Assembly (NCBI GenBank): GCA_039630325.1
Contig: JBCNVG010000013.1
Coordinates: 48,396 to 112,395 of the forward strand
Length of the DNA: 64,000 nucleotides
DNA from: Bacteroidia bacterium
GTDB taxonomy: Bacteria; Bacteroidota; Bacteroidia; SpSt-205
Direction: 5' to 3'
Each line of letters opens with the position of its first letter. Within the stretch, counting starts at the first letter, position 1. The translations under genes and the position numbers were made by a program. The notes below the pieces were generated by a model, which did no database searches, was not told the origin of the DNA, and saw only the letters and a program-made list of their open reading frames with translations. Shown in pieces: positions 12,006-38,135 of this stretch.

Positions 12006-12039
12006 AAATCTAAGGTACAAAATATGCGTACTTTTGGAC

Positions 12040-12429
12040 ATGGCACGCCCACCGAATCTCCGTCAGCAGCGTTTCGCCGCTGAAATGAAGCGTGTTTTAT
12101 CTGATATCATTCGGGAAGCGAGTGATGAGATCCCTGAGTTAGCTGGCTATCTTATAGAAGTGAGCGATATCCGAGTCACAGCAGACCTCCAGCAGATACG
12201 AGCTTATATCTTAGTATCTCCGCCAGAGAAGCAGGAGTTTGTGGTCCGACTTCTAAATCAGTATCAGAAAGCCATTCGATATCGCCTTGCACAGCAGATA
12301 CGCAATCAAGTAAAGGTCATGCCCACCGTTCAGTTTTTCACGGATGAAGTGGAGCTTCGTGCCCGTCGGATAGAAGAGATACTTAGAAATCTTCCCCCAC
12401 CTGCAAAGGATAGCTTTCCTGAAAGTTGA
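12040..12429 (+). CDS. rbfA: Ribosome-binding factor A
   Basis: KH-like RbfA core (QQRFAAEMKRVLSDIIREASDEIPELAGYLIEVSDIRVTADLQQIRAYI). The start is placed at the ATG at 12040 (MARPPNLRQQ). Confidence 0.75.
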   Translation: MARPPNLRQQRFAAEMKRVLSDIIREASDEIPELAGYLIEVSDIRVTADLQQIRAYILVSPPEKQEFVVRLLNQYQKAIRYRLAQQIRNQVKVMPTVQFFTDEVELRARRIEEILRNLPPPAKDSFPES

Positions 12430-13631
12430 GCCCCTATATGGGTGCTCTGATTTGGCGGTATCTACTTCGCAGTCCACGACCTGTCATTCGGTGGTTGCTA
12501 CGATTGAGCTTTGTCGGACTAGCTTTGTCTGCTTGGGCCTGGATAGTAGTAGCATCGGTTTTCAATGGATTCAGTACCTTTTTGGAGGAAGTTTTTCAGC
12601 GCGCAGATCCGCAGGTTCGCTTAGTTGGACAGGGATTGTCAGACTCTCTTCGTCAAGCGCTTGAACAGTACCCAGAGGTGGCGGCAGCTTCTGGTATTTT
12701 GGAGCGCATCGCCCTCCTGCGATATGGCGGCCGTCAGGCAGTGGTCAGACTGCGCATCGTAGATCAAAAGTTTGCTCAGGTGAGTCAGATTGGCTCTCAG
12801 CTTCTCTGGGGAGAGGCCTTTCCCCTGCGTCCCAAAGGTGTACTCATGGGAGCTGGTGTGGCCGCCCAGTTAGCCGTAGCAGATGTAGAAGAAATGCCTC
12901 TTTGGATTTATGTCATCCATTCGGGAAAAAAAATCGCTTTTACAGGCATAGAAGGGCTCCAACGGCAAAAGGGTATTATCCAGGGTATATTCAGCGTCCA
13001 GAAAGAGTACGATGAATCATGGGTAATCGCCCGACAGGAGGATTGGCCTACGCTGCGCTCCTCTACTTATGAAGCTATTGAGCTGAGGCTTCGCTCAGGC
13101 TACTCTATTGAGCCATTTATCAAACGACTCCGAGCCATTTTACCCGTGCAGATTCAGATCCAGGACCCTAAGCAGCAACATGAAGGTTTGTATAAAGTCC
13201 TTCTCCAAGAGAAATTTCTGGCCCGAATAGGTCTATTTTTTCTCATCATATTGACATTGACCGGTGTCATTAGCACCCTTTCGGCTTTCTTGCTACTTGG
13301 ACGGCGAGACTGGGCCTTGTATCAAGCATTGGGCGCCCCCCGAGATTGGATAGAGCGCTTGCTCCGGCGATTGAGTCTCACTTTACTCATCACGGCCGTC
13401 AGCACAGGTCTGCTGCTTGGCACTGTGACAGTCATCTTACAAGACCGATATCACTTGGTCAAACTACGAGGGGGCGAGGGTTTCTTGATTGAGCATTTCC
13501 CCGTTAGGCTTGCTGCAGAGGACTACCTTTGGTTGATTGGATTAGTCGGCGGAGCTTTTATCTTGCTATCCGCTTATTCTAAGTATCAACTGCGGCAAAT
13601 AGATTTGCGAGCATCTTTACAGGGAGATTAG
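12426..13631 (+). CDS. FtsX-like ABC-type permease family protein
   Basis: N-terminal TM segment, an extracytoplasmic domain, and a C-terminal FtsX-type TM bundle (LIILTLTGVISTLSAFLLLGRRDWALYQALGAPRDWIERLL...). It overlaps rbfA by 4 nt. Confidence 0.65.
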   Translation: MSPYMGALIWRYLLRSPRPVIRWLLRLSFVGLALSAWAWIVVASVFNGFSTFLEEVFQRADPQVRLVGQGLSDSLRQALEQYPEVAAASGILERIALLRYGGRQAVVRLRIVDQKFAQVSQIGSQLLWGEAFPLRPKGVLMGAGVAAQLAVADVEEMPLWIYVIHSGKKIAFTGIEGLQRQKGIIQGIFSVQKEYDESWVIARQEDWPTLRSSTYEAIELRLRSGYSIEPFIKRLRAILPVQIQIQDPKQQHEGLYKVLLQEKFLARIGLFFLIILTLTGVISTLSAFLLLGRRDWALYQALGAPRDWIERLLRRLSLTLLITAVSTGLLLGTVTVILQDRYHLVKLRGGEGFLIEHFPVRLAAEDYLWLIGLVGGAFILLSAYSKYQLRQIDLRASLQGD

Positions 13632-15967: not shown

Positions 15968-16822
15968 ATGAAATCCATCCTACATCTTACGGACTTTTCA
16001 GAAGTCGCCCAGAATGCATACGCTTATGCTATAGCGATTGCCAAAAAGTACGGTGCTGAGCTGCATGTTGCCCATATCTATGATCGACCATATGCAAGTA
16101 TCGCTTATCAAGGAGGCCTATCCGCTGTGGTAGATGCTGAAATGGATGCTAAAATCCGCCGTGAACTTCTCAAACATTTAGAGAGTTATGTCACCTCTGC
16201 TCCATCCGATGGAGTGCGAGTGCTAATGCATTTATGGGGCGATCAGACTGTTTGGCGACCAGACCAGTACTTGAACAAGGTCCCAGGGACAGAGCTGATA
16301 GTGATGGGTACTCGCGGTGCCACAAGCTTATGGCATGGAGGGCTATTCGGAACAAATACAGCTCGCCTCATTCGGCACAGTCCTGTACCAGTTCTTGCAG
16401 TTCACGCGAAAAACACCTATACCGACTACCAAAAAGTCTTACTGCCCATAGATATTTTTGATGAGGCCACTATACCGCTGCTTCAAGCTGCGCTGCAGTT
16501 TTTGCATCCATGGCCGAATGCAAAGTTCATCCTCTTAGTGATTAACACGCCATATGTTTTCTACGACACCCCCTCCATAGATAAGTTCCTGGAAGAGGTC
16601 AAAGAGAAAGTCAGACGCCCCAACATAGAACTTCGGGTATATAATGATATCTCCGTAGAAGAAGGACTGCGACAAGCCATGGATGCAGAAAAAGCCGACC
16701 TCCTCGTGATGGGAACCCACGCTCGCAAAGGGCTGGCTCAGCTTCTATTTGGAAGCATCACCGAAAATGTAGCTCAGCATTTAGAATATCCTCTATTAGC
16801 TTTTCCTTTGAGTAAAAGCTGA
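15968..16822 (+). CDS. Universal stress protein, tandem UspA domains
   Basis: Two USP repeats (ILHLTDFSEVAQNAYAYAIAIAKKYGAELHVAH ... LLVMGTHARKGLAQLLFGSITENV). Confidence 0.8.
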   Translation: MKSILHLTDFSEVAQNAYAYAIAIAKKYGAELHVAHIYDRPYASIAYQGGLSAVVDAEMDAKIRRELLKHLESYVTSAPSDGVRVLMHLWGDQTVWRPDQYLNKVPGTELIVMGTRGATSLWHGGLFGTNTARLIRHSPVPVLAVHAKNTYTDYQKVLLPIDIFDEATIPLLQAALQFLHPWPNAKFILLVINTPYVFYDTPSIDKFLEEVKEKVRRPNIELRVYNDISVEEGLRQAMDAEKADLLVMGTHARKGLAQLLFGSITENVAQHLEYPLLAFPLSKS

Positions 16823-16895
16823 AACTGCGGGGGCAATCGTCCCTACACCCTCACCTGCAGCTAAGGAGGATATAAACTACGCCAGGGCGTTAGTT

Positions 16896-16950
16896 CCCAA
16901 ATAGCTACGGGGGTGCGTCTGCACCCCCGTAGCTATTTGGGAAAGATTTT
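16896..16950. terminator. Bidirectional rho-independent terminator (perfect 21-bp stem, 4-nt loop) between convergent genes
   Basis: cccaaatagctacgggggtgc-gtct-gcacccccgtagctatttggg followed by aaagattttt. It lies between the stop of the USP gene and the stop of the giant minus-strand gene. Confidence 0.6.
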
Positions 16951-16957
16951 TGCTTGC

Positions 16958-19900
16958 TCAGGGGACAAGTTTGAGTAGCTTGAGAGATATTTCCTCGCCA
17001 TCCTTGAAAAACTGAAGAGTGTAGATACCCGTTGCCCAGGAGCGAACATCTATCTGGACTTCGTGAAATCCAGCGGAATAACTCTGCGGTGTGATGTAAG
17101 AGACCAACGCACCCTTGGCATCATATACCCTCACCTCGACATACTTCTCCTCGGATAGACTAAACTGCACTGTGAGAAGCTCCGTCACTGGATTAGGGAA
17201 GGCCCTGACCAGCTCCTGGATAGGCCCTGAGACCTCTCGAGGGAATCTAACTTCTGCTAAGTTACTGTACGCCACCTCCCCTCCCAAGTGTTCGCTCACT
17301 ACTCGGTAGAGGTTAGTTTGCTCGAAGCTAGGGAAGCTGTCTATCCAACTAAATGAGGTGGATCCTTGAACGGGATATCTGTATACCTCCACCCACCCCG
17401 TATCCACACGCTTCTGCAAAAGCGCATACTGGATGGGGACATTCGTTTGCCATAAGAGGCGAATATGAGCCTCGGGCGTCGGATAAGCGGCCAATACACT
17501 TTGTATAGCAGGGAGGGGTGAGCAGTTAGTGACATTTACAGTCTGCTGGACAGTATCAGGGCAAGCACCAGGAGCACTCACCACCATAGTTATCGTCTTC
17601 GTGCCTGGTGTACTCCAAGTGCAAGATTGGGAACCGCCAGAACTCCAGGTTGAGCCATTATCACAGCTCCACTGGACATTCCCGCCAATCACTGGTGAAC
17701 TGGAATAAACCTGAAACTCCCCGAAAGTAGGAGCATTTGCCGCCTGCACATCAAATTCTAACCGCCATAGATGCGCAAAAATAACCTGGGTCTCCGTGAA
17801 AATGCCGCTGTCGTAGACATAACTACCTGGGGTAAAGGAGAAAGTTTTGGCCAACTTCCATCCCGAACCGTCATTGTAATAAAGACGAGCCCGTCTCGGA
17901 AGGCGCTGGGCCGCATTTGGACAGGACTGGCATGCCCAGAATACGATTCTATTCACGCTGCGCGGTATAGGGTACCGCCACATGGCCCATTGAGTGCTGG
18001 CTCCTGGGTTATTGGCTGTCCAGGCGGTACCGTTTTGATAGATACCATCTCCAAGCTGAGCAAAGTTAGCTGTTTGGACAGAGGAAAAAGTGAGCTGACT
18101 CATGTTGGGGACAGTTCCATGGATACCGAATCCAGTGATTAGGGTACCGAAGCTCGGTTGGCTCGGCCCTGAAACGAGGGTTTGATTGGTAAAGGTTACT
18201 GGCTGTCCTGTGCAATAAGGAATAGGGCTAATAGAAAACTGCCCATCTATCCGAGGCAGAGCAATAGCGGCTATCGGCACTCGCTCTGCGGAGCAGGAAT
18301 TTTCCACCCAATATAGCTGAGACTGCGTCAGAGATGATATGACGAGGGTAGGCGTATTTGAAGCGATAGGTGTCCCGCTAGAAGGGGTGAGATACCAGTT
18401 AGAGGGAACGCCGGCTTGGAGCGTGAGGGAGCTCCCTGCACATACGGCGGTATCTTTTTCCTGAGCTAAAAAGTTGGTCGTGTATGCCGTTGCCGCCCCA
18501 TCATAAGGTCCGCCAGCGATGGGAAGAGGACATCCTGATAGAACTATCTGCGTTGCCGCCCCATCATGCGGCCCCCCCACATAACTAAAAGTCGGACAAC
18601 TCGCTAACACCACCCCACTCGCAGACCCATCATAGGGACCTCCCGCAATTGGCATCGGGCAGCTCGCTACAATCACCTGCGTCGCAGACCCATCATACGG
18701 ACCTCCTACATAACTAAATGTCGGACAGCTCGCTAACACCACCCCACTCGCTGACCCATCATAGGGACCTCCGGCGTACGGAAGCTCAGGAAGGGGACAG
18801 TTTATTATCGCAGCGACGGCAGCCCCATCATAAGGACCACCAGTGTATTCCGTGATATCCCAACAAATAGCCCCTACAAACGCTGTCGCCGCCCCATCAT
18901 ACGGCCCCCCTGCATAGCTCAGTGTCGGACAGTTCGCAAGGAGTACTTCACTCGCAGACCCATCATACGGCCCGCCAGCAATCGGCATCGGACAACTTGC
19001 CACAATCACCTGCGTCGCAGAGCCATCATACGGACCGCCTACATAACTAAAAGTAGGACAGCTAGCTACCACCACTTCCGTAGCAGACCCATCATACGGC
19101 CCACCCGCAATCGGCATCGGACAGCTCGCCACAATCACCTGCGTCGCAGACCCATCATATGGGCCCCCTATATAACTCAATGTAGAACAACTAGCCAAAA
19201 CTACCGCCGTAGCTGAGCCGTCATAGGGACCACCAGCTCTTGCAGGCCATATCACATCAAACTCTATGCAGAAGGTAGAGTCGCATAAAGTGCCATTTGT
19301 CACCGTAACGCATACACGCTTTCGCCCCGGTATAGTGTAGCTCACAGGAGGAGGTACAGGGCCGCTATAGTCTATTTGCGAGGCGCCACACCCAGCACTG
19401 CCATTTGCACAGAAGTTCCAGTAAATATTTGCCCCCGTTCCATTTACAGTATCTACATAAGTGGGCGAAAAGGTAATAGGAATCCCAAGCCAAACTGGTG
19501 AAGGAGGACTCATGGTAACACTCACCCCTGGCATCGGATAGATGATCAAGTAGCGACATGCTGTATCCGCCTGGGTACCATTACTCACCCGCAGACATAC
19601 CAAGTATGTATCTGCCACTGTATAAGTATGTTGCGGCTGAAAATGGGTAGAAGTATTTCCATCCCCAAATAGCCAATAGTACTGAATCCCAGGACCCACT
19701 GAGGAATAGTTTAGAAACTGGATGGACTGTCCTGAGCAAGAGCCTACAAAATCAAAGTTAGCTCTTGGTCTATCAGGATCAGGCGGAATGCACGTTTGCT
19801 GGATAGGATTTGCTGTAACATGCACAGTGATATCTCCTGTGGCCCATTCCGGCATCACGACTTGTATCCAGAAACTTTTGAGCGGAGGGCGGCATTTCAG

Positions 19901-22900
19901 ATGCAGCGTAACATACGTCCCCTCAGCGACACACTCCTCCTGGTTCATGGTGTTACAATCCCCCGTAAGTACCCGATAGAGCACCTGACTACCCAAGGCA
20001 GTTGTATTTTCCACGATCTGCACGTCAAAATCCATCGTATCAGGCGTGAGGTTATTCACGAGCACCCAGGCAGACTTCTTCCCTACAGGGGTGCCAAAAC
20101 ATGCCATGATTGTGTCGGCCTCTCCAGCACCTTCACCGATAGTGAGGCAGTTTATGAGCAGATTGGTAGAATACGGCCCCCCCGCAGCAGCCACAGATAT
20201 AGTCACGGAGTCTTGACAGAAATCCCCTGGATGCCTTTGGAGCCATATGCGGGGGACCACTAATCCGAGATGATTACACCCTGTGAACATAATATAGTAC
20301 CGCCCTGGCCGAATACATCCTCTACCCCAATAGCGGTATCCCAAAGTAGGATGCGTCTCCCACACCCCCGTCAGAGGAACCCGAACCAACCCAGTGGAAG
20401 AGGAATCGCCAGGTACAGCTTGATAATAAAGCTGTATATCATCGGGATGGTAGTTATACTGATTCACGCCAGGACGGTCATAGTTGAGAAAGACATAGCC
20501 TGTGATTGCTGATTCAAAAGCATACCAAATGGTTCGAGTTCCGCAAGCATTTTGGTCTGTGGGGTCTTTGGTAGCACAGGTAAGGTCTCCTTGACAGCCC
20601 GTGTAGGTACCAGCTGAAAGTGCCGCCCAGGTGTAAGGCAAGTCACATTGAGTAGTCGGATTAGCAACTATGACATTAGCCTCAGAATAGTGGTCGTAGT
20701 TTACGCCCCCTCCCGGCAAAGGTTCCAAACGCACTCCAACTTCCACCTGTATATTCGGTTCTTTACCACAGGTATTACGATACACTACTACGTAATATCG
20801 CTTTGGAGGCTTGCAGGCATCTCGTTGAAAGCTCACAGTAGTGTACTGGTCACAACACCACCACCAACCTTGCGAAGAGGCAACCAATGTGAGTCCATTA
20901 GCTATTGTTGAATCCACACTCGTCGGGAATGCCCCCGGAGGGTCATCGCTTTCATACACAGCAAACGCCGGCTGCCATCCCGTACCAGGGGTCTGAGCAT
21001 AAACACTGACATGTACGCGAACATTGCCCCCGGCTACGAAAGTATACCACAGATTACGACGCCGATCAGGTAGGGTCGTGGGGGGAGAAGCAGAACCAGG
21101 GTTGGTATTAACTACCCCCAGAGGACAGTTGGCAGAGGGATCTGTGCTGAAGGCGTCTGTAGTGCAGAAAATAAAGTCTGTACTCCCAGGCCGCCCGTAA
21201 GGTCCCAGGGGATCTCCTGGTCGGGTTCTATACTCCGTATTGTCTGGGGGAAGCGTGCCAAAATCATACGCATGAACAGCGTAATTATGCAGAGAATACC
21301 CTACCGAGTCCACATAGATAGTCGGCGTGTAAGTGGATCCGATACACCCATCACCTGCAAAAGTTACCAGGGTATAAGTCCCAGGTGGCACCCAGCATAT
21401 GCGCCCAGTACCCGAGAAACAATCATGAATAATGGTGTAAGGGGGAGCGTTGGCTGTAATGTCACCCTGATACAGGCGAGAAGAGCCATAGCAACCATTC
21501 TGATAGATGACGAGGTAACTGGGACGAGTAACAGAAAATACCCGATAGCTCACTCTATTCTGGCCTCCGCTACACGGGGTGATGCCAGAAGGAAAAGGTA
21601 AATTATTAGCACAGCCCCAAAACTCCCAATCCAGTGTATAGCTACGATGCTGATTAGGTGCGTAGACATAGTGAGGTACCCAGTCTAAGTTGCCAGGTCG
21701 GTCAGCCGTGGCAAAGGTGCCGAACTTCTGAACCCTCGGATCACGAGAGATAGTAAACCATATGCGATTTCCTATGGCCCCGCCCCTTCCGCTGGTATAT
21801 GAAGGGTTAGTGTATGTACCTCCCACCGCATATGCTACGAAAGTGTACCAGCCAGGCTCCATACACACTGTATATCCCCCATGACAGTCCATGAAGAGAG
21901 AAGTAAGGGTATTATTACTTATCCGTCCCCGAAAGGTTCGCCAACCGGTAACGCCCAGCTCTGGCCAGGCTACATAGGCATACTGCGGAGAGAAGGTTAC
22001 CAAGCTCGGTTCAGCGATATAAACTTCCCAATAAAACTGCTTAGTGGCACCGCCACACGGAGCATACCCTAAGATGGTTAGAGGATTATCATGGCAAGTA
22101 ACACGAGTCCAAGTCGCCGTCAAAGAGTGCGTAGCCCCCCCTATCGTCCCAACCTCCTCCACATTCGGACGGGGATCCGGATTCCCCGGCAGGCTCACAG
22201 GGGCTGTGGGGGTGTAAAATCGCCGCTCTCCAGGCGGGAATACATGAAAGCGAAACCATGGACGATCCCTTTCCCCAATGTCCGAGTCGTCACCAAAGCT
22301 TACCAAGGTATAGTAGCCAGGAGTTACACACACCTTGACAGGGTAGTAAAGGTCCTGACACCCCACCTGGTCAATCAAGTTCTGAATACGACCTCCTACA
22401 ATAGGTTCTACACGAGCATCCCCGCGGTAGAGCCTATACCTAAATCGCCACCAGTTCCCCCCACCCACTTCTAAAATCCCCTCTTGATCTACTCGGATAA
22501 TCCGATAAATAGCGCGATTATTACCTCCACCGCATACATCCCCAGCTGGTAGAACGGTGGTTCGGCAGTCTAAGGTATCCCACTGAGCGTAGTAAGTTAC
22601 CCCCGGAGTCAGGGGAAGTCCATTATTGATAGAGTCAGCTTCTTGAGGACGGATGTGAAGACCGAAATTCTGCTCAGGCGTGGAGCCTAACTGTACATGG
22701 AAACTAACGGGCAACCCCATAGCAGAATAAGGTGACCTGCAAGCCCCCCACAGAGCTGAACGATTGATGCGAGCCAGCACCTGTACGGTATAAGTTCCAG
22801 CTGTGAGACAATTCACCCACCCATCATTATCCACGACGGCTTTGAGAGGGAGATTGCATCCATTTATCGCGGGCGTGCCTTCAAAAACCCTAAATCGCAC

Positions 22901-24151
22901 CGTACCCATGCAGTACCACCAATCCCAGGGCCAGGGATAAGAGTACCAAAATCGCACATGCGCCGCCCCTGTCAGAGTAAACGTGTAGTACAGGGCTAAA
23001 TCAAAATCTCCTATTGTATCATCTGGGGTAACGGCACTACCAAAGGTGCCACAGGGATTATCAACGATACGGCTCTGACATCCCCAAAAGTCGCTGACTG
23101 TAAAAGTTGGACCAAAGGATAAAGTTCCTAAGTGATGAGTGCCTGGAATACTAAGGGGATTGTAGGATATCGCAGCTTGGCTACCGCGCTCATACAAGCG
23201 CAACCGAACCCTATTGGCGTAATTGGTACGCCCTAAAATTTTTATGGAATAATAGGTATTCGGCTGAAGCTGACACAACCTGTCATAACGAGCACCCGTA
23301 CTGCTATTGTTCTGAACCATGGGAATGCAGCCTTGGATGAGTGTCAGGCCGGCTGCCGAGTCAGTTAGCGCATTGCCCTGGTAGATGAAGAGCCGCCATT
23401 CCCTTGGGGAGGGATTAGAACTATTCCAAGGGTCCTCCATGAGCTCTATACCTACCCAATCCACATAAGCGTCGGTTCGGAATACATGCCATGTGGATTT
23501 ACTCCAGCTTGAGTCATTATCACAAATCGTCTCACCTTGACTCACAGACTGACAAGCGTAGTCAAAAGTGACATCCTTGAGCAAAACGGAACTTGCAGAA
23601 GTATTAAGGACCCCGAGGTTTTGAGCTGTGGCCATATGGTCATATTCCGCCTCCGCTCCTGCACTGATTGAGGGAGCGGATACGATCAGTTCTAAAAATA
23701 TTTGACCACTGACTGCAAGGTTAGCTCCCACCTGCACCATATACCAGCCCCGTTGAAGGCAGGCGTGTGTGTATCCCTCCATGAGGACTATGGGCGGGTC
23801 TACCCGTTGAGCTGGACCGGGTAAGCAGGTATTGCCCCGATAAAGTGTCCAACCCACATGCGTAGGGTCAATAGAATTCCCCACTTGTCGAAGGATGATG
23901 CGTACTGTCCGCGTCGTGGGTAGGTAGAAACGATACCATACACTTTTTCCATTCGGAACTCCAGGGGGAATATACTCACCCGCTTGGAGTGTAGCATTAG
24001 TGATATTTACGGTATCGCTGTAGAAAGTACCCACCCCATATGGACTATGCGGATTGCCGAAAGCGACGAAGGATCCATTAGCGCAGTTATCGTTCGAGGG
24101 GGGCTGGGCAAGTACTATGCTTACCCAGCCTATGACCCACACATGGCGCAT
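16958..24151 (-). CDS. Giant secreted cell-surface protein (2397 aa) with T9SS C-terminal sorting domain, PKD and F5/8-type-C (discoidin)-like domains, and an internal tandem-repeat array
   Basis: N-terminal signal peptide. The C-terminal about 80 aa match the Por secretion tail (PNPVTELLTVQFSLSEEKYVEVRVYDAKGALV...GIYTLQFFKDGEEISLKLLKLVP). A PKD-like motif (YYWLFGDGNTSTHFQPQHTYTVADTYLVCLRVSNG) and a discoidin-like block (WAMWRYPIPRSVNRIVFWACQ...) are present. About 12 GGPYDG repeats are also present. Confidence 0.85.
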   Translation of the reverse strand: MRHVWVIGWVSIVLAQPPSNDNCANGSFVAFGNPHSPYGVGTFYSDTVNITNATLQAGEYIPPGVPNGKSVWYRFYLPTTRTVRIILRQVGNSIDPTHVGWTLYRGNTCLPGPAQRVDPPIVLMEGYTHACLQRGWYMVQVGANLAVSGQIFLELIVSAPSISAGAEAEYDHMATAQNLGVLNTSASSVLLKDVTFDYACQSVSQGETICDNDSSWSKSTWHVFRTDAYVDWVGIELMEDPWNSSNPSPREWRLFIYQGNALTDSAAGLTLIQGCIPMVQNNSSTGARYDRLCQLQPNTYYSIKILGRTNYANRVRLRLYERGSQAAISYNPLSIPGTHHLGTLSFGPTFTVSDFWGCQSRIVDNPCGTFGSAVTPDDTIGDFDLALYYTFTLTGAAHVRFWYSYPWPWDWWYCMGTVRFRVFEGTPAINGCNLPLKAVVDNDGWVNCLTAGTYTVQVLARINRSALWGACRSPYSAMGLPVSFHVQLGSTPEQNFGLHIRPQEADSINNGLPLTPGVTYYAQWDTLDCRTTVLPAGDVCGGGNNRAIYRIIRVDQEGILEVGGGNWWRFRYRLYRGDARVEPIVGGRIQNLIDQVGCQDLYYPVKVCVTPGYYTLVSFGDDSDIGERDRPWFRFHVFPPGERRFYTPTAPVSLPGNPDPRPNVEEVGTIGGATHSLTATWTRVTCHDNPLTILGYAPCGGATKQFYWEVYIAEPSLVTFSPQYAYVAWPELGVTGWRTFRGRISNNTLTSLFMDCHGGYTVCMEPGWYTFVAYAVGGTYTNPSYTSGRGGAIGNRIWFTISRDPRVQKFGTFATADRPGNLDWVPHYVYAPNQHRSYTLDWEFWGCANNLPFPSGITPCSGGQNRVSYRVFSVTRPSYLVIYQNGCYGSSRLYQGDITANAPPYTIIHDCFSGTGRICWVPPGTYTLVTFAGDGCIGSTYTPTIYVDSVGYSLHNYAVHAYDFGTLPPDNTEYRTRPGDPLGPYGRPGSTDFIFCTTDAFSTDPSANCPLGVVNTNPGSASPPTTLPDRRRNLWYTFVAGGNVRVHVSVYAQTPGTGWQPAFAVYESDDPPGAFPTSVDSTIANGLTLVASSQGWWWCCDQYTTVSFQRDACKPPKRYYVVVYRNTCGKEPNIQVEVGVRLEPLPGGGVNYDHYSEANVIVANPTTQCDLPYTWAALSAGTYTGCQGDLTCATKDPTDQNACGTRTIWYAFESAITGYVFLNYDRPGVNQYNYHPDDIQLYYQAVPGDSSSTGLVRVPLTGVWETHPTLGYRYWGRGCIRPGRYYIMFTGCNHLGLVVPRIWLQRHPGDFCQDSVTISVAAAGGPYSTNLLINCLTIGEGAGEADTIMACFGTPVGKKSAWVLVNNLTPDTMDFDVQIVENTTALGSQVLYRVLTGDCNTMNQEECVAEGTYVTLHLKCRPPLKSFWIQVVMPEWATGDITVHVTANPIQQTCIPPDPDRPRANFDFVGSCSGQSIQFLNYSSVGPGIQYYWLFGDGNTSTHFQPQHTYTVADTYLVCLRVSNGTQADTACRYLIIYPMPGVSVTMSPPSPVWLGIPITFSPTYVDTVNGTGANIYWNFCANGSAGCGASQIDYSGPVPPPVSYTIPGRKRVCVTVTNGTLCDSTFCIEFDVIWPARAGGPYDGSATAVVLASCSTLSYIGGPYDGSATQVIVASCPMPIAGGPYDGSATEVVVASCPTFSYVGGPYDGSATQVIVASCPMPIAGGPYDGSASEVLLANCPTLSYAGGPYDGAATAFVGAICWDITEYTGGPYDGAAVAAIINCPLPELPYAGGPYDGSASGVVLASCPTFSYVGGPYDGSATQVIVASCPMPIAGGPYDGSASGVVLASCPTFSYVGGPHDGAATQIVLSGCPLPIAGGPYDGAATAYTTNFLAQEKDTAVCAGSSLTLQAGVPSNWYLTPSSGTPIASNTPTLVISSLTQSQLYWVENSCSAERVPIAAIALPRIDGQFSISPIPYCTGQPVTFTNQTLVSGPSQPSFGTLITGFGIHGTVPNMSQLTFSSVQTANFAQLGDGIYQNGTAWTANNPGASTQWAMWRYPIPRSVNRIVFWACQSCPNAAQRLPRRARLYYNDGSGWKLAKTFSFTPGSYVYDSGIFTETQVIFAHLWRLEFDVQAANAPTFGEFQVYSSSPVIGGNVQWSCDNGSTWSSGGSQSCTWSTPGTKTITMVVSAPGACPDTVQQTVNVTNCSPLPAIQSVLAAYPTPEAHIRLLWQTNVPIQYALLQKRVDTGWVEVYRYPVQGSTSFSWIDSFPSFEQTNLYRVVSEHLGGEVAYSNLAEVRFPREVSGPIQELVRAFPNPVTELLTVQFSLSEEKYVEVRVYDAKGALVSYITPQSYSAGFHEVQIDVRSWATGIYTLQFFKDGEEISLKLLKLVP
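18481..19248 (-). repeat. In-frame tandem repeat array (about 12 units of 63-66 nt, i.e. 21-22 aa) inside the giant gene
   Basis: The DNA motif gacccatcatacggacc recurs about every 60-70 nt. It encodes GGPYDGSATQVIVASCPMPIA alternating with GGPYDGSASGVVLASCPTFSYV. Several units are identical at the protein level. Confidence 0.8.
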
Positions 24152-24186
24152 AATATTTCTAAGGTTTCAAGCCGCAAGACGCTGAA

Positions 24187-25689
24187 TTATCGGGCACCTC
24201 GGCCACCAACATGGTGATGTCTATGAGAAGGATTGCGATTATTTGAACACCCATGGTTAGGGAACGAGCAGTTCCGAGCGGAAACCCTATGCTCGCGCCA
24301 GTCATTACCCCATGAGCCTCCTCTGAGCCCAAATCCCGCAGGGTTTCCTAAGGGCCAGGAGGGTTGATTAGCCGCTCCGGTCCCCCAATCCAACACTCCG
24401 TCTCCCCAATTGCCTGTATAAGTAGGCGAGCCTACTGTCCCATCGGGTGCCGAAACCATTACCACCATCTCCCACACGTTTCCGCTCATATCCATAACTC
24501 CATAGTACGAGGCGCCGCTGGCTTCCCTATTGGGAGAACCTGGCTTAGCATGAATCCCCACCCGAACAGGTCCTTGGCCGCCATCTCCACCACTGTAGTT
24601 CCCCCCAATCCACCCCGTACAGTTAGCATTTGAGGGAGCACTAAAAACCTCGGTTCCGTTTTCCGGTGTAATGCTCAAAGTAGTGCCGAAATTAATGTTC
24701 GTAGAGCCCCATGCATATTCCCCCCTAACTTCAGGGAGCGCCCCCCTGCATATTTTCTCGTATTCCATTTCCGTGATAGGGCGTAGAGCCGCCCAATCCA
24801 GATAAGCACAGAGATCATGCCAGGATAGGTAGTTTTGTGCTCTATCCTCTCTATCAGAAAAGTACTGAGAGGGATAGACCCCAGTATTAGCTAACCTGTT
24901 ACGATAGCTATTGAATGACCCTAAATATCTTAGTGAGGCGGCACCTGCGGGTAAAGTGTTCAAAAAAGCTGCATACTGACCTTGCGATATTTCATATTTC
25001 ATTACGTGGAAAGCCTTATAACCCTTCGGGAAACTGGTAGGAACATTTATGGAAGTAGAGCCTGAACCAGCCCATTTGAGAGAAATAGCTGCTTCTGAGG
25101 TAATGTTATAGGGTATGTGAGGATTACCACTATTCCCATTCTGATCAAAAGCACGGGCTGCTTCATCGCTCCAATCATGCCACCCATCTAAAGTACCTAA
25201 GACGTAAGCTCCCTCGGGTATAAACACCATCTCTATCCCAAAAATCCTAAAGTCATACTGTCCAGTCGTAGGCAAATTCGTTACCTTAAGAGTAACGCTG
25301 TGAGGTCCGAATGTCGCATAGGTACCCGCATTTGCCGGGCGGAGCATGATGCCCAGATTATTCGGCGCAGGATCTACCCCTACTCCACTCCCATCAGCTA
25401 AAACTGGCTCTAACGCGGCGGGTATCGTGTGATCGCTCAGCGTTGTACTTATCTGTCCATGAGTCCATGGGTCAACAAACTGATTACACGCCCTAAACTT
25501 TACAAAAATCCAAACGGCATCCCAGTTAGCTGGGGGTGTGGTGAGACGCCAGGCATTCTGCCAGCTTACTTGAAAGGAAACGGTCTGGTTAGCTTGGTTT
25601 ACAGTAAAATTCGTTATTTGCAGGTTATTCGCCAGCAGAGAAAGGCTACTCAGTAGCCCGACAGCTATATAGTAGCAGCTCCGTGTCAT
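24187..25689 (-). CDS. Secreted FGE-sulfatase (SUMF1/EgtB/PvdO) domain protein with an N-terminal beta-rich extension
   Basis: Signal peptide (MTRSCYYIAVGLLSSLSLLA). The FGE-domain motifs are IEMVFIPEGAYVLG, YEISQGQYAAFL, GNVWEM and RGGSWGNDW. It lies 35 bp upstream of the giant T9SS cargo gene in the same direction. Confidence 0.75.
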   Translation of the reverse strand: MTRSCYYIAVGLLSSLSLLANNLQITNFTVNQANQTVSFQVSWQNAWRLTTPPANWDAVWIFVKFRACNQFVDPWTHGQISTTLSDHTIPAALEPVLADGSGVGVDPAPNNLGIMLRPANAGTYATFGPHSVTLKVTNLPTTGQYDFRIFGIEMVFIPEGAYVLGTLDGWHDWSDEAARAFDQNGNSGNPHIPYNITSEAAISLKWAGSGSTSINVPTSFPKGYKAFHVMKYEISQGQYAAFLNTLPAGAASLRYLGSFNSYRNRLANTGVYPSQYFSDREDRAQNYLSWHDLCAYLDWAALRPITEMEYEKICRGALPEVRGEYAWGSTNINFGTTLSITPENGTEVFSAPSNANCTGWIGGNYSGGDGGQGPVRVGIHAKPGSPNREASGASYYGVMDMSGNVWEMVVMVSAPDGTVGSPTYTGNWGDGVLDWGTGAANQPSWPLGNPAGFGLRGGSWGNDWREHRVSARNCSFPNHGCSNNRNPSHRHHHVGGRGAR

Positions 25690-25814
25690 ATCAATGCAAA
25701 CCTAAGATAGAAAATGTACTTCGGCGAAACCACATTTTTACCCTTGGTAAACAACTTGAAGTTCATATTATCTTTACAAGATCAGCACATGACTCAGAAA
25801 CAGGTAAACAAATG

Positions 25815-27239
25815 GGACGACTTCAAAGATACCTACGAAGCCTCACCCCTTCAGAATGGGAATCGCTTTACACCGAAGCCCAGAAGGAACTAAGAGGTCA
25901 CAAGATGCGCTCCCTACTGGAGCGTTTACGCCGCACCAGCGCCCCCCAAGTTCTAAACCCAACGGAAAAAGAACTCGCTAAACGCATAGAGCGTTGGATA
26001 TGGAAGCATGCCTTTATTCAGGCGCACAAGTCTCATCCCATATACGCTTCCCCTCCGATAGAATGGATTAGTAAAGGGGCTCTCCTCTATCATGCCAAGG
26101 GATTGTCCACAGATGCCCTTGCCTTACTGCGCGGTGAGGTCCATTTACCCCTGGAAAAATTGACACTCCTTTTCCTCAGACTCAAAATTCAAATAGAATC
26201 CGGCGCCGCTAAGAAGGCATCTAAAACTCTGAGGGAAATAGAGCACATCAGCGACCATTTGAGAAGATCTATCCAGCGCGAACGGCTCCAGCTTACCCTT
26301 TGGCGTCTCCTAAATGAATATGGGGGCTCCTACACTGAAATCGGTCAGCGCTTTTTGAGAAGATTAGAAAAGCACCCTTATTGGAAGCACACTCATGGTA
26401 CAGCCTCAGAAGAGAGTGTGGCAGATACTAACCTTCGGATATTATATGCCTTAGCGAAAGGAAACCCCATGGAAGCATATAAGCTGTGCCTTGATAAAAC
26501 CGCTCAATCCCATCCCAGCATCCTCCTCAACCGATGGCTATGTAGTATCATGCTAAAACATCCTCTAAGTGAATATCTATCCTACGACACCTTGTATACA
26601 ACCAAGCTCTCAGAATATGACAAAGCCACTCTCTTAAATCGCGTACTCTTAACCCTCCTGATTTACGGGTCGCCAGCTTACTTGACCTCTAAGCTATCTC
26701 TATTGGAGCATTGGTATTTGAGCTCCGGTTTCCTTCCAGAAAATGGTCTCGTGTGGCTACAACTGCTTTGGCTCTGCGGAAAGTCTGAAGAAGCTATCAA
26801 GCTATCAGAGAACCTATTAGAGAAAGTAGAAGGCAAACCCTTCACTTACATTCAAGTGGCACTTATGCTTCTGTTGATTTATGCTGAAAATCACAAATGG
26901 AATAAGCTCGTACAACATCTTCGGAGATTGCTTTACTGGCTAAAGAGAGTAGAGAAGTTCATCGCTTCAGCACCCGTAATGCATAAACTGCTCAGGCAGC
27001 TCTATCAGGCTCGATTGCGCCCACAGGTCCTTTCAGCAGTGGCTGAGAGGTGGAAAAAACATCTTGCCTCATACCCTACCGAACGCTACTTCTGGGAAAT
27101 TACCCTATTACCAGATTGGATTGAAGCCCGTCTCAGCCATCAAGGAATCATCGGATATCGCCAAAACGCCCACCGGGCTTCAGTCACCGATCTTGAAGCT
27201 TTGATTCAAAAAGCAACCCGGGTATTTCCTCCCTTGTGA
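25815..27239 (+). CDS. Hypothetical alpha-helical protein
   Basis: Long ORF with good coding character but no recognisable motif. The start is set at MGRLQRY (25815) because the track start at 25683 would overlap the divergent FGE gene start. Confidence 0.4.
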   Translation, partial: GRLQRYLRSLTPSEWESLYTEAQKELRGHKMRSLLERLRRTSAPQVLNPTEKELAKRIERWIWKHAFIQAHKSHPIYASPPIEWISKGALLYHAKGLSTDALALLRGEVHLPLEKLTLLFLRLKIQIESGAAKKASKTLREIEHISDHLRRSIQRERLQLTLWRLLNEYGGSYTEIGQRFLRRLEKHPYWKHTHGTASEESVADTNLRILYALAKGNPMEAYKLCLDKTAQSHPSILLNRWLCSIMLKHPLSEYLSYDTLYTTKLSEYDKATLLNRVLLTLLIYGSPAYLTSKLSLLEHWYLSSGFLPENGLVWLQLLWLCGKSEEAIKLSENLLEKVEGKPFTYIQVALMLLLIYAENHKWNKLVQHLRRLLYWLKRVEKFIASAPVMHKLLRQLYQARLRPQVLSAVAERWKKHLASYPTERYFWEITLLPDWIEARLSHQGIIGYRQNAHRASVTDLEALIQKATRVFPPL

Positions 27240-33915: not shown

Positions 33916-34464
33916 TTACTGGAACGTAACCTTGAAGCTTCCTTCGGTTACTCGAACTGAGTCTGTGGGATTGAAAGCGCTGCCTTGTCCTAATCCCCCG
34001 TACAACATACCGCTAAAAGTTCCTTCTGCTCGATTGCCTCGGACATTGACGGTGAGAGTGAGATTAGCACCAGAAGCAGTCGGATGAGGGGCAGAATATC
34101 CGCGTCTCCCTTGTGGTCCATGATGAGTGTAAAGAAGCTGAGGGGTTCTATCTGAGCCGGAATCTCTACCTGTGAAAGTATAGGAGGTATCAGAACCCGT
34201 AGTCGGAAGAGGAAGATCCGTGATAGTGATAGAGAATGTATCTCTGCCTTCATATAATATCCCTATCAAACCCCCATAGTTGTCTCTTTGCATCGCCGAT
34301 ACCATGGGGAACTGCTTCAAAGTTCCTTGGATTTTGGCTTGAAGGGAGTTGTCCCCTAACATGCCTCCGCCAGTCGGGGAGTTGGGGTCTTTTTTATCCT
34401 TCTTACAGGCAGAGAAAGTCAGCAAGCTGACCACCGCCACTATGTTCGTAATACGCCTTCTCAT
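33916..34464 (-). CDS. Hypothetical lipoprotein, member of a tandem paralogous triplet (A)
   Basis: Lipobox at internal start MRRRITNIVAVVSLLTFSAC-KKDKKD. C-terminal motifs AEGTFSGMLYG and TDSVRVTEGSFKVTF are shared with the two upstream genes. Confidence 0.55.
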   Translation of the reverse strand: MRRRITNIVAVVSLLTFSACKKDKKDPNSPTGGGMLGDNSLQAKIQGTLKQFPMVSAMQRDNYGGLIGILYEGRDTFSITITDLPLPTTGSDTSYTFTGRDSGSDRTPQLLYTHHGPQGRRGYSAPHPTASGANLTLTVNVRGNRAEGTFSGMLYGGLGQGSAFNPTDSVRVTEGSFKVTFQ

Positions 34465-34465
34465 A

Positions 34466-35032
34466 TCAAAATCGGATTTGGAACTCTCCATCTGTGATTT
34501 GGAGCGAGTCAGTAGGCTCTGCGGCATCGTAGACCCAACCTGAAAAACTGCCTTGAGCTGTATTGTTAGATACCGACACCTGCATGGTAAAGCGAGGCGG
34601 CTTGGAGGCTGTATGCGAGGCGTAAATGGAGTCACCTCTGGAGCGGACGATAGAAAGGATAAAAACGAATGTACTAGTTTGGGCAGGCGTAATATTTACA
34701 GTGTAGTTGGTATCAGGACGACTTTGGGGATAGGCAAAAGAAATGGTGCATTCAAGCGTATCGGTGGGGCGATTTAGCCTGTGGGAGAATGCGTGAGCGC
34801 GACCATACATATACCCAGACTCCTCCACATAAAACTTGAGCAGTTCGCCGCGCAGCCTAAACTGGATCGTACCCAAGGAGGGGTCTCCGCCACTACCGCC
34901 TCCCCCTCCACCACCGCCACCAGAGTTCTGTCCAGAGCCTGGATCATCTTTATCCTTCTTCTTGCATGCGGGGCTACTTACTACAAAAAGTCCAAACAGC
35001 CCCCATAGAAGCATTTTCGAATATCGCCTCAT
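34466..35032 (-). CDS. Hypothetical lipoprotein, tandem paralog (B) with poly-Gly linker
   Basis: SSPAC-KKKDKDDP lipobox, a G9SGG linker, and the shared motifs PQSRPDTNYT, AQGSFSGWVYD and TDSLQITDGEFQIRF. Confidence 0.55.
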   Translation of the reverse strand: MRRYSKMLLWGLFGLFVVSSPACKKKDKDDPGSGQNSGGGGGGGGGSGGDPSLGTIQFRLRGELLKFYVEESGYMYGRAHAFSHRLNRPTDTLECTISFAYPQSRPDTNYTVNITPAQTSTFVFILSIVRSRGDSIYASHTASKPPRFTMQVSVSNNTAQGSFSGWVYDAAEPTDSLQITDGEFQIRF

Positions 35033-35046
35033 AAGAATTAGAGCTT

Positions 35047-35580
35047 TCAAAATCGTAAGCGAAACTCTCCATTTGTAATGCGCACTGAATCAGACGCCTC
35101 CCAATAGTTGTACAACAACCCACTAAAAGTTCCCTGAGCTATATTACCTGATGAGATTCTAAGCTGCACATCTAAACGAGAATAACGATTCCCATGACGA
35201 GCACTGGTGATGTAATACTTGCGCGCTGGATACAAAACTACTCGGAACTCCCCTCCCACTACGTCATTTCGGGCATTAAGTTGATAAGAAGTATCTGTGC
35301 GACTGGTCGGAAGAGGGAAATCAAGGACGAACTCAATCGTATCGCTGCCTACGATTAGGGTGTCTGTAGAGTGAATATACTCCGGTCCAAACCCCGCTGC
35401 CTTGTAGCTTAGAAAGGGAGTATAGGTAAAGGTTCGGCCATTCGCTTGGAAGCTTACCCGATTATCCGTATAAAGCCCTGATCCAGTCCCTCCACTCGCC
35501 GGCTCATCTTTCTCCTTCTTCTTACAGGCCAAGCTCCCTATCATAAGGAACCCAAGAAGGTAGACCTGATAGTGCCTCAT
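35047..35580 (-). CDS. Hypothetical lipoprotein, tandem paralog (C)
   Basis: GSLAC-KKKEKDEP lipobox and the shared motifs PLPTSRTDTSYQ, AQGTFSGLLYN and SDSVRITNGEFRLRF. Confidence 0.55.
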   Translation of the reverse strand: MRHYQVYLLGFLMIGSLACKKKEKDEPASGGTGSGLYTDNRVSFQANGRTFTYTPFLSYKAAGFGPEYIHSTDTLIVGSDTIEFVLDFPLPTSRTDTSYQLNARNDVVGGEFRVVLYPARKYYITSARHGNRYSRLDVQLRISSGNIAQGTFSGLLYNYWEASDSVRITNGEFRLRF

Positions 35581-35638
35581 AGCCCAGCGAGGCAAGTGGC
35601 TACAAAGGGTTACTGGTGAGAGACGCATACATCGAGCT

Positions 35639-37943: not shown

Positions 37944-37994
37944 GACGCGAAGTAAAACATTATTGAGGCTGAGTGTGTACCTTTGTTCAAAGTA

Positions 37995-38078
37995 GCCCAG
38001 ATGGCGGAACAGGTAGACGCGCCAGTCTCAAAAACTGGTGGAGGCAACTCCGTGCCGGTTCGAGTCCGGCTCTGGGCA
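37995..38078 (+). tRNA. tRNA-Leu (anticodon CAA)
   Basis: The sequence folds as a cloverleaf by hand. Acceptor GCCCAGA/TCTGGGC+A, anticodon stem CCAGT/ACTGG with loop CTCAAAA, a long variable arm, and a TTCGAGT T-loop. Confidence 0.85.
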
Positions 38079-38135
38079 CGAGCCCTCCGAGGACTAAAAA
38101 AAACTCTCGTCAGAGCCCTCCTACTAATAGGCATT

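Follow-up and report, generated by a model that had tools for sequence, protein, structure and literature searches.

In a Bacteroidia bacterium, a gene for a protein with the fold of the formylglycine-generating enzyme (FGE) stands directly upstream of the gene for a giant type IX secretion system (T9SS) cargo. The pair lies in the window analysed here, a 64,000-nucleotide stretch of DNA (contig JBCNVG010000013.1 of assembly GCA_039630325.1, positions 48,396 to 112,395 of the forward strand). By alignment, the FGE-like family has lost the catalytic cysteines of the enzyme from which it takes its name, and what its genes adjoin from genome to genome is not a particular giant protein, but cargos bearing a short repeat of the form [YF]xGGxxDG. 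Tentatively, the two genes may form a T9SS surface module, in which a non-enzymatic subunit of the FGE/C-type-lectin fold engages the repeat array of its cognate cargo; this account is possible, and it is the one favoured here.

The gene pair and its products

A preliminary description of this DNA had placed an FGE-domain gene 35 bp upstream of a giant T9SS cargo, and the open reading frames (ORFs) bear this out, with a gap of exactly that length. The FGE-like protein is 100% identical to NCBI protein MEN3040317.1 (P0173 in our set), from a metagenome-assembled genome (MAG) of a Bacteroidia bacterium, which carries the name 'SUMF1/EgtB/PvdO family nonheme iron enzyme'. The features of the locus, with the evidence for each in brackets, are as follows; pLDDT, the predicted local distance difference test score, is that of an AlphaFold2 (AF2) model.

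24187 to 25689, minus strand: FGE-like gene, 500 amino acids (aa), ATG start (ORF list; Pfam FGE-sulfatase match; identity to MEN3040317.1)
25630 to 25689, minus strand: Sec signal peptide of the signal peptidase I type, aa 1-20, MTRSCYYIAVGLLSSLSLLA, no lipobox (translation; low-pLDDT helix at aa 6-19; onset of conservation)
25246 to 25629, minus strand: family-specific all-beta N-terminal domain (N-domain), aa 21-148 (DSSP strands at aa 22-157; family conservation)
24190 to 25245, minus strand: FGE/C-type-lectin-fold domain, aa 149-500, without the FGE catalytic cysteines (Pfam; hhalign; Foldseek; cysteine alignment)
24208 to 24315, minus strand: hypervariable C-terminal loop, aa 459-494, SWGNDWREHRVSARNCSFPNHGCSNNRNPSHRHHHV (alignment; within-cluster variability; entropy)
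24152 to 24186, minus strand: intergenic gap, 35 bp, without a terminator- or promoter-like site (sequence; scan; gaps of 12-143 bp between FGE-like and cargo genes in orthologous loci)
16958 to 24151, minus strand: giant T9SS type-A cargo gene, 2397 aa (ORF list; Pfam and NCBIfam; orthologues 3' of FGE-like genes)
18467 to 19246, minus strand: repeat array, 12 units of ~21-22 aa, giant aa 1636-1895 (direct repeats D1; motif positions; repeat profile; AF2)
16970 to 17200, minus strand: T9SS type-A C-terminal sorting domain (CTD), giant aa 2318-2394 (Pfam Por_Secre_tail, E=8e-11; TIGR04183, E=1e-7)
16895 to 16942, no strand assigned: perfect 20-bp GC-rich hairpin, likely a bidirectional terminator (terminator scan; sequence)

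The terminator scan found no terminator-like site in the gap between the FGE-like and giant genes. The strongest terminator-like structure of the region is the hairpin at 16895-16942, situated between the giant gene and a convergent tandem-Usp gene (15968-16822), where it would likely end a two-gene transcript. A gap free of terminators, with a hairpin only after the giant gene, makes co-transcription of the pair plausible.

The FGE-like protein was modelled with AF2 on 40 homologues (pLDDT 87.7, predicted template modelling score (pTM) 0.91). The model begins with a helix at aa 6-19, continues as an all-beta region at aa 22-157 and then adopts the FGE fold, in keeping with the signal peptide, beta-rich N-terminal extension and FGE-type domain that had been read from the sequence. 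Family conservation begins at Asn21, directly after the predicted signal peptidase cleavage site LLA|NN. There is no lipobox, as the sole early cysteine, Cys5, stands ahead of the hydrophobic core and is not kept by homologues; nor does the protein bear a T9SS CTD. No NCBIfam family, those of GldJ and GldK included, matched it at E<=0.01, and the earlier judgement that it is not a lipoprotein like GldJ and GldK (PorK) thus stands. The N-domain is distinguished by the motifs SWxNxWR and NWDAxWxFVK, by residues that are near-invariant across 77 diverse sequences (W43, N45, W47, D57, W60 and K64), and by a lone conserved cysteine, Cys68 (codon 25486-25488); it has no Pfam or PDB sequence match. 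The remainder of the protein is recognized by Pfam as FGE-sulfatase (PF03781; aa 225-472, E=3e-12), and in a Foldseek search of the PDB genuine FGEs rank first (E down to 3.5e-9), followed by CalU17, OvsA/EgtB, pFGE and ToxD. Many invariant charged residues are kept in this domain.

Loss of the catalytic cysteines

The human FGE sequence that served as the reference was checked against the PDB (100% match to 1y1e), and entries of the C336S/C341S mutants identify both catalytic cysteines in the human segment GGSYMCHRSYCYRYRCAAR. Profile alignment with hhalign joins the family to the core of human FGE with 97.3% probability over ~160 columns, ending at GNVWE, before the catalytic segment, and a PDB sequence search with the C-terminal 111 aa returned no FGE match. 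The cysteine test therefore relies on aligning the C-terminal parts with MAFFT, the family and human motifs RGGSW/KGGSY, RVSxR/RCAAR and GGRGxR/GFRCA serving as anchors. Human Cys336 and Cys341 fall in the family loop GGSW-xxxx-xxx-RVSxR, which is shorter by 3 residues, and not one of 39 family members has a cysteine at either position. The family likewise does not match the loop required of an FGE, GGS[YF]xCHxSYCxRYR, and the pair is equally absent from outliers beyond the Bacteroidota, including the homologue at locus L070, from a Verrucomicrobiota-labelled MAG. Judged by these alignments, the FGE-like family is not one of formylglycine-generating enzymes. The absence of the cysteine pair indicates a non-enzymatic role, at least as regards FGE chemistry, and of the options raised in the preliminary description it is the structural, non-enzymatic one that this favours.

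Potential substrates of an FGE are missing from the window as well. The remark that no sulfatase gene lies nearby holds for all of it: a scan of the six frames with PROSITE-type patterns and CxPxR gave no sulfatase signature, and CxPxR is likewise absent from the giant. At L070, the gene downstream of the FGE-like homologue (11526-13235) is a genuine sulfatase with a CTPSR motif. Its presence was considered as a sign of true FGE function and rejected, because the L070 homologue also lacks the cysteine pair. Several of the loci labelled Verrucomicrobiota, Omnitrophota or Brocadiaceae may be binning contaminants or a distinct subfamily.

A repeat is the conserved partner

The giant protein had been taken as the evident partner of the FGE-like protein. 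This pairing is real and conserved, but its conserved element is narrower than the giant: the [YF]xGGxxDG repeat, confined to aa 1636-1895 and shared with cargos as small as 139 aa. In relatives down to 43% identity, an FGE-like gene, in some loci two in tandem, is followed on the same strand by a PKD- and CTD-bearing protein of ~2300-2500 aa, and the outer flanks are unrelated. A tblastn search with the giant found full-length orthologues only in the closer clade (including L010, L011, L015-L021 and L028); distant relatives match the giant only at residues ~1640-1890. As far as sequence comparison can tell, the conserved partner is the repeat.

FGE-like proteins are widespread. A scan of species-representative genomes yielded at least 589 relatives, whose cultured hosts include Flavobacterium dankookense (DSM 25687), F. 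solisilvae, F. mekongense, Saprospira grandis (DSM 2844) and Brumimicrobium salinarum; Ignavibacteriota are also among the hosts. A search with the N-domain alone recovered at least 1171 clusters (50% identity), in all of which it occupies the N-terminus; full-length matches span ~450-590 aa (shorter ones are probably fragments), which points to a fixed architecture.

For the analysis of downstream partners, 79 related loci were retrieved. Nearly all have a same-strand ORF closely downstream of the FGE-like gene, within ~250 bp in most. No association with gldL/M/N (porL/M/N) was found: the flanks of more than 80 related loci, like the window, hold unrelated genes, and the repeat cargo is the only constant neighbour. 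With an 18-column hidden Markov model (HMM) of the repeat and a threshold of 10 bits, we searched every ORF of 60 aa or longer in the six frames of the 79 loci and of the whole window, ~830,000 residues altogether. The HMM matched 50 ORFs, 38 of them from outside its training set, and every one lies on the same strand immediately downstream of an FGE-like gene or its tandem paralogues; elsewhere in the ~830,000 residues there was no match. Within the window, the 12 units of the array were the only matches. Among loci with at least 600 nt of downstream sequence, 46 of 71 were positive.

The partners thus delineated range from 139 to ~2500 aa and carry 1-18 [YF]xGGxx[DGS]G units with a period of 21-28 aa. 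A type-A CTD was present in nine of the ten tested, and the minimal partners (139-142 aa) comprise no more than a single unit set between a signal peptide and a ~25-aa linker that leads to the CTD. The first unit is often found at the mature N-terminus, just after a signal peptide ending in Gln. In the partners at L039, L067, L086, L072, L058 and other loci, a Gln at the predicted mature N-terminus directly precedes the first unit (A|Q[YF]xGG...), and the giant has the same Gln arrangement at aa 15-17. These termini fit the Bacteroidetes 'Q-rule', whereby pyroglutamate follows signal peptidase I cleavage. The search also works in reverse, as two proteins found by the array alone (P0239 and P0240) each have an FGE-sulfatase gene directly upstream. 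The large-database search with the array returned three matches only, because its word index probably saturates on repeats. Synteny, which the preliminary description had proposed to examine in relatives, is therefore strongly conserved, and the adjacency is not coincidental.

Gene arrangements within the family are also informative. Two or three tandem FGE-like paralogues with different tails occur in 11 of the 79 loci. A natural in-frame fusion, P0339 (1184 aa), runs from a complete FGE-like protein through two repeat units and a passenger to a weak CTD, and was assembled identically in two sequencing runs; an FGE-like moiety is thus compatible with belonging to a T9SS cargo. Another protein, P0360 (1055 aa), consists of two complete FGE-like proteins fused (N-domain and FGE fold twice), with no repeat or CTD. 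One contig, BPGV01000001.1, carries two separate modules ~556 kb apart: L011 is of the giant type, and the partner at L026 is almost all repeat, with 14 units in 409 aa of a split ORF. Two modules in one genome suggest that specificity between subunit and cognate array may matter. At L012 (11501-19078; KatS3mg026), the giant orthologue is split into several ORFs (674 aa plus fragments) with all parts present, the result of either pseudogenization or assembly frameshifts.

The array and the cysteine of its units

The giant is composed of a signal peptide, ~1400 aa of unassigned beta modules, a PKD domain, the repeat array, an Ig_7 domain, further modules and the CTD. The long segment upstream of the PKD domain (aa ~20-1470; 19739-24090, minus strand) has no Pfam match and resembles repeated beta modules of ~130-150 aa opening with an NDNC...WYRF-type motif, with 31-80% identity in orthologues. 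The array has the consensus [YI]xGGPYDG[SA]A..V..ASCP.., and neither Pfam nor NCBIfam has a model for the [YF]xGGxxDG repeat. In its AF2 model, which is of moderate confidence (pLDDT 69, pTM 0.63), each unit contributes two strands to a regular beta repeat. The nearest PDB folds to the array are the beta-helices of TibA (4q1q) and Ag43, by a weak match (E 9e-4, TM ~0.36), and the modelled units probably form a beta-helix or solenoid stalk. Among close orthologues, the GGPYDG core and the Cys are fixed, unit number varies (10, 10, 12, 18), and array identity falls to 56-68% as against 74-81% for the whole giant. A parallel drop is seen in the FGE-like protein, whose tail retains 55-69% identity as against 75-86% for its body. 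Both the residues between the array motifs and the FGE-like tail thus evolve faster than the proteins that carry them.

Cys68 of the N-domain and the Cys of the repeat unit tend to come and go together. Both are present at 46 loci and neither at 9; 4 are discordant, 2 of which are truncated ORF calls (Fisher p ~1e-8). The co-variation is consistent with a disulfide that possibly links the two. Within the FGE-like protein, Cys68 and Cys314 each occur without the other, so that they are not an obligatory pair. The module persists in lineages that have lost both Cys68 and the repeat Cys, and cysteine chemistry therefore cannot be its core function.

A hypervariable loop at the former active site

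The segment that carries the catalytic cysteines in FGE has become the most variable part of the FGE-like protein. Framed by invariant scaffold residues (RGG, R472 and GGRGxR), the loop takes the place of the active-site loop of FGE. Among homologues with 72-85% overall identity, the last ~45 residues read RGGxWxxxx-xxxRVSxRxxxxPxHxx-xxxRNPxxRxxxxGGRGAR, a pattern of scrambled positions amid an invariant scaffold. In clusters whose members are at least 90% identical, the tail shows 2-5x the variability of the body, and in one protein pair with identical 439-aa bodies two tail positions differ. Across 77 diverse members, mean column entropy per 10-aa block reaches 2.7-2.8 bits at aa 461-480, the same as in the signal peptide. 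The scaffold residues that frame the loop (R472, R490, GGRGxR) are strictly conserved, which argues that the loop is maintained rather than decaying. Comparisons of dN/dS (nonsynonymous to synonymous rates) between tail and body, and of the nucleotide-level signature of a diversity-generating retroelement (DGR), are uninformative, since synonymous sites are saturated (proportion of synonymous differences, pS, 0.8-0.9), and dN/dS does not tell positive selection apart from relaxed constraint. Length variation and insertions also occur in the loop. The largest example comes from Brumimicrobium salinarum (L049, 9950-11929; P0293), in whose tail ~150 aa are inserted between KGGSW and GGRGVR; this recalls the insertion hubs of PorK.

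A proposed surface module and its alternatives

On the reading favoured here, the FGE-like protein would be exported to the periplasm by Sec. Its former active-site loop would have turned into a hypervariable surface loop, and a family-specific N-terminal beta-domain would have been gained. The protein would then physically engage the [YF]xGGxxDG units of its cognate cargo, either as a non-covalent subunit or, in most lineages, locked by a disulfide that pairs Cys68 with the one Cys in a repeat unit. In this division of labour, the cargo would contribute the CTD, by which it is exported through the T9SS and anchored at the surface, and would set the valency (1-18 units, 12 on this giant), and the FGE-like subunit would supply a lectin-like, fast-evolving binding surface, its variable loop occupying the place where FGE and TvpA bind ligand. 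The subunit itself bears no CTD and would probably leave the periplasm attached to the cargo. We infer the physical binding, the disulfide, the co-export and surface display, and the binding of ligand by the loop; for docking on the cargo, it is gene linkage that speaks. Tandem paralogues with different tails, together with a tail and an array that both evolve fast, look like the behaviour of a subunit. Of the three roles put forward in the preliminary description (modification of the cargo, an accessory or chaperone, or a structural component), the evidence leans toward binding or accessory function and away from an enzymatic one.

Several observations weigh against the surface module. No precedent was found in the literature for hitchhiking of a CTD-less protein through the T9SS. 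Hypervariability may reflect a simple relaxation of constraint on a defunct active site. About one third of the informative loci hold, by eye, only degenerate GGSGSG-like units below the HMM threshold, and some Verrucomicrobiota-labelled members have no repeat partner. The fusion occurs in a single lineage, and its linker resembles a remnant signal peptide, which suggests recent loss of a stop codon. Confidence in the predicted array fold is only moderate (two of five AF2 models, at the pLDDT of 69 given above). Finally, a neighbour-joining tree reduces the cysteine co-variation to at least three changes of state, only two of them with partner data, so that this signal is suggestive only.

The alternative that survives best is itself rather unlikely. 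It holds that the FGE-like protein is a repeat-modifying or maturation enzyme that makes a post-translational change to every [YF]xGGxxDG(..C) unit while the cargo is still periplasmic and awaits T9SS export, as FGE acts on CxPxR in sulfatases or as TibC and Aah modify the repeats of TibA and AIDA-I. Enzymes whose substrates are small or are short peptide motifs do occur in the fold family (FGE, EgtB/OvsA, CalU17, ToxD), and the invariant charged residues of the FGE-like domain would suit another. However, the one catalytic site known for the fold coincides here with the segment that varies most, in which no Cys or His is conserved, and the other chemistry suggested by the database name is no better served: the DinB-like helical domain of EgtB and OvoA, with its iron-binding His triad, is absent, the N-domain being all-beta in the AF2 model and without a Pfam match. 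The repeat could pass for a recognition motif, as its GG..DG core, the preceding aromatic residue and the nearby Cys are all strongly conserved; yet the module persists where that Cys and Cys68 are both lost. A helper gene just upstream of a repeat adhesin, and the match of the array to TibA, mirror the logic of tibC-tibA, whereas the occurrence of two or three tandem paralogues beside one cargo, and of a fusion in frame with it, is what one would sooner expect of a subunit than of a catalyst.

Quite unlikely is a chaperone or holdase confined to the periplasm, which would bind aggregation-prone beta-helix repeats, keep them export-competent or cap them, and be released at the translocon, its loop an unconstrained relic. 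Such a protein would account for the same linkage and binding evidence as the surface module; it fits a Sec signal without CTD or lipobox, requires no unprecedented co-export, and would make hypervariability a matter of relaxed constraint. On the other hand, strict retention of the loop's framing residues implies maintenance. The fusion, moreover, places the FGE-like moiety inside a CTD-bearing cargo, where it would be exported, and the minimal partners at L067 and L086, with a single unit and no passenger, leave little to chaperone. A disulfide lock, if real, would suit a permanent subunit better.

Could the loop instead be the variable region of a DGR, as in TvpA, with reverse transcriptase (RT) and template repeat elsewhere in the genome? 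The resemblance is considerable, as the domain has the FGE-type C-lectin fold with variability in its last ~45 aa between conserved scaffold residues, the C-terminal peptide of human FGE also matches TvpA (2y3c), and there are multiple FGE-like paralogues per locus. There are DGRs whose target lies at a distance of over 100 kb, as well as DGRs with several FGE-sulfatase targets (PMC5758913). A local DGR is rejected on the scans of the window and related loci. An A-tolerant ungapped search for a template repeat on both strands of the window and six related loci gave self matches only, the repeat finder run on the window found no template repeat, and no RT motif (YxDD/IGNxxSQ) of a DGR was found in the same window and six loci. 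The single YVDD match falls inside an S41 peptidase, and no RVT genes are called within 10 kb on either side in nine loci (L001-L009). A remote DGR is very improbable too: the variable columns often hold W, E, Q, K and M, residues out of reach of AAC/AAY-templated adenine mutagenesis, the loop varies in length and takes insertions, and tails are stable, that of the window being identical in three independent assemblies of its lineage and those of other clusters constant across many samples. Last, a genuine FGE, or a paralogue of the core or track components GldK, GldJ and PorK, placed beside the cargo by chance, is essentially refuted, for all that database names ('formylglycine-generating enzyme family'; SUMF1/EgtB/PvdO), the Pfam match, the L070 sulfatase and the fold shared with GldK, GldJ and PorK speak for it, by the family-wide absence of the catalytic cysteines, L070 included, by a window without sulfatases, by the absence of a lipobox and of an NCBIfam GldJ/GldK match, and by adjacency to repeat cargos kept in dozens of unrelated genomic contexts.

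Novelty and implications

Reuse of the FGE fold and cargo-specific accessory genes are already known themes in the T9SS. The FGE-like family, its N-domain, the [YF]xGGxxDG repeat and their pairing appear undescribed, being found neither in Pfam nor in NCBIfam nor in the searchable literature, where queries for the FGE-like/repeat-cargo pairing and for the family name in secretomes returned nothing relevant. The names 'formylglycine-generating enzyme family' and 'SUMF1/EgtB/PvdO nonheme iron enzyme' are indicated to be wrong for this family, which concerns thousands of proteins of Bacteroidota and Ignavibacteriota. Taken together, the new repeat and the new N-domain mark a specific class of T9SS cargo. 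Use of the FGE fold as a cysteine-based docking hub would extend from the T9SS core machine to cargo-specific accessories.

A bolder version of the surface module would make it a widespread two-component system, whose dead FGE/C-lectin subunit docks on the array, mostly through Cys68 and the repeat Cys, and is carried out by the T9SS without a CTD of its own, so that cargos display multivalent lectin-like heads with a loop that diversifies without a DGR. In this full form the proposal is unlikely. If true, it would be the first case of hitchhiking T9SS export and a retroelement-independent counterpart of the variable lectins made by DGRs. It raises the questions whether the T9SS exports hetero-complexes and how environmental Bacteroidota build and diversify their surface adhesins. 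Cultured hosts (F. dankookense DSM 25687, F. mekongense and S. grandis DSM 2844) permit direct experiments.

Other genes of the window

Neighbours of the FGE-like/giant pair in the window are unrelated. The divergent gene at 25812-27239 (plus strand) codes for ~475 aa that lack a signal peptide and are matched by neither Pfam nor NCBIfam. In the ORF list it opens with a GTG at 25683, so that it overlaps the start of the FGE-like gene, but 474-aa homologues fit the ATG at 25812. It was considered as a third member of the module and rejected, because it adjoins the module only in the closest relatives (L001-L004). At 34000-35630 (minus strand), direct repeats D2-D4 mark two adjacent paralogous ORFs of ~193 aa (34466-35050 and 35047-35628), and with a related stretch (33916-34635) they form a small tandem gene family. 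Farther along, 37983-42413 (plus strand) encodes a 1476-aa TamB/YhdP-like protein of outer-membrane biogenesis, with no relation to the module.

Comparison with known systems

Among proteins of known function, the FGEs themselves (SUMF1 and the bacterial enzymes) share with the FGE-like family the core fold and the motifs W-x-D-A-x-A-Y..WA, GN.WE, RGGS[WY], R..R and a G-x-R C-terminus, together with an ancestral capacity to bind a short linear peptide motif. The family departs from them in lacking Cys336 and Cys341, in the 3-residue deletion of its loop, and in having neither a sulfatase nearby nor CxPxR in its partner.

For the array, the closest likeness is to TibA and Ag43, the best PDB matches of what is predicted to be a short-period (~21 aa) beta-helix. 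In tibC-tibA, the helper gene is adjacent and upstream; TibC and Aah modify every repeat of TibA and AIDA-I, respectively, and TibA is hyper-glycosylated. A dedicated helper gene immediately upstream of a repeat adhesin is thus common to these systems and to the FGE-like/cargo pair. They differ in that the secretion system is of type V rather than type IX, the repeat sequence is unrelated and the helper is a glycosyltransferase rather than an FGE-fold protein, and the structural match is weak.

TvpA of Treponema denticola (2y3c) exemplifies a class of DGR proteins with the FGE-type C-lectin fold and a C-terminal variable region (PMC5758913). Like the FGE-like protein, it pairs a non-enzymatic fold with an extreme C-terminal variable, presumably ligand-binding, segment held between scaffold residues ending in G-x-R. 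In contrast to DGR targets, the FGE-like loci have no nearby RT or template repeat, their residue spectrum is incompatible with adenine mutagenesis, and tail variation accumulates between strains rather than within populations. The additional N-domain and the obligate repeat-cargo neighbour are likewise not DGR features.

A further parallel comes from the T9SS itself. PorK, GldK and GldJ, which belong to its ring and its gliding track, are Bacteroidota FGE folds that lack the catalytic cysteines, tolerate insertions in their loops and serve as non-enzymatic docking hubs (PMC12421860), and GldK bears one invariant exposed cysteine, Cys343, that is disulfide-linked to SprF/PorG (PMC12635249). 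Phylum, secretion system, fold and loss of the catalytic cysteines are all shared with the FGE-like family, whose lone Cys68, co-varying with the repeat Cys, parallels Cys343. Unlike these lipoproteins, the FGE-like protein has no lipobox and no NCBIfam GldJ/GldK match. It possesses its own N-terminal beta-domain, and its candidate cysteine resides there rather than in the FGE domain. Moreover, PorK, GldK and GldJ belong to the core machinery, whereas the FGE-like protein is encoded cargo by cargo, often in two or three tandem copies, and its partner is a cargo repeat instead of PorN or a PorP-family protein. In this respect it recalls SprF, a cargo-specific accessory encoded beside a large T9SS adhesin and needed for cargo handling and anchoring (PMC12635249). 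In both sprB-sprF and the present pair, the accessory gene is adjacent to and co-oriented with that of the adhesin. SprF, however, is an outer-membrane beta-barrel associated with type-B CTDs and is encoded downstream, whereas the FGE-like accessory is a soluble FGE-fold protein encoded upstream of type-A CTD cargos.

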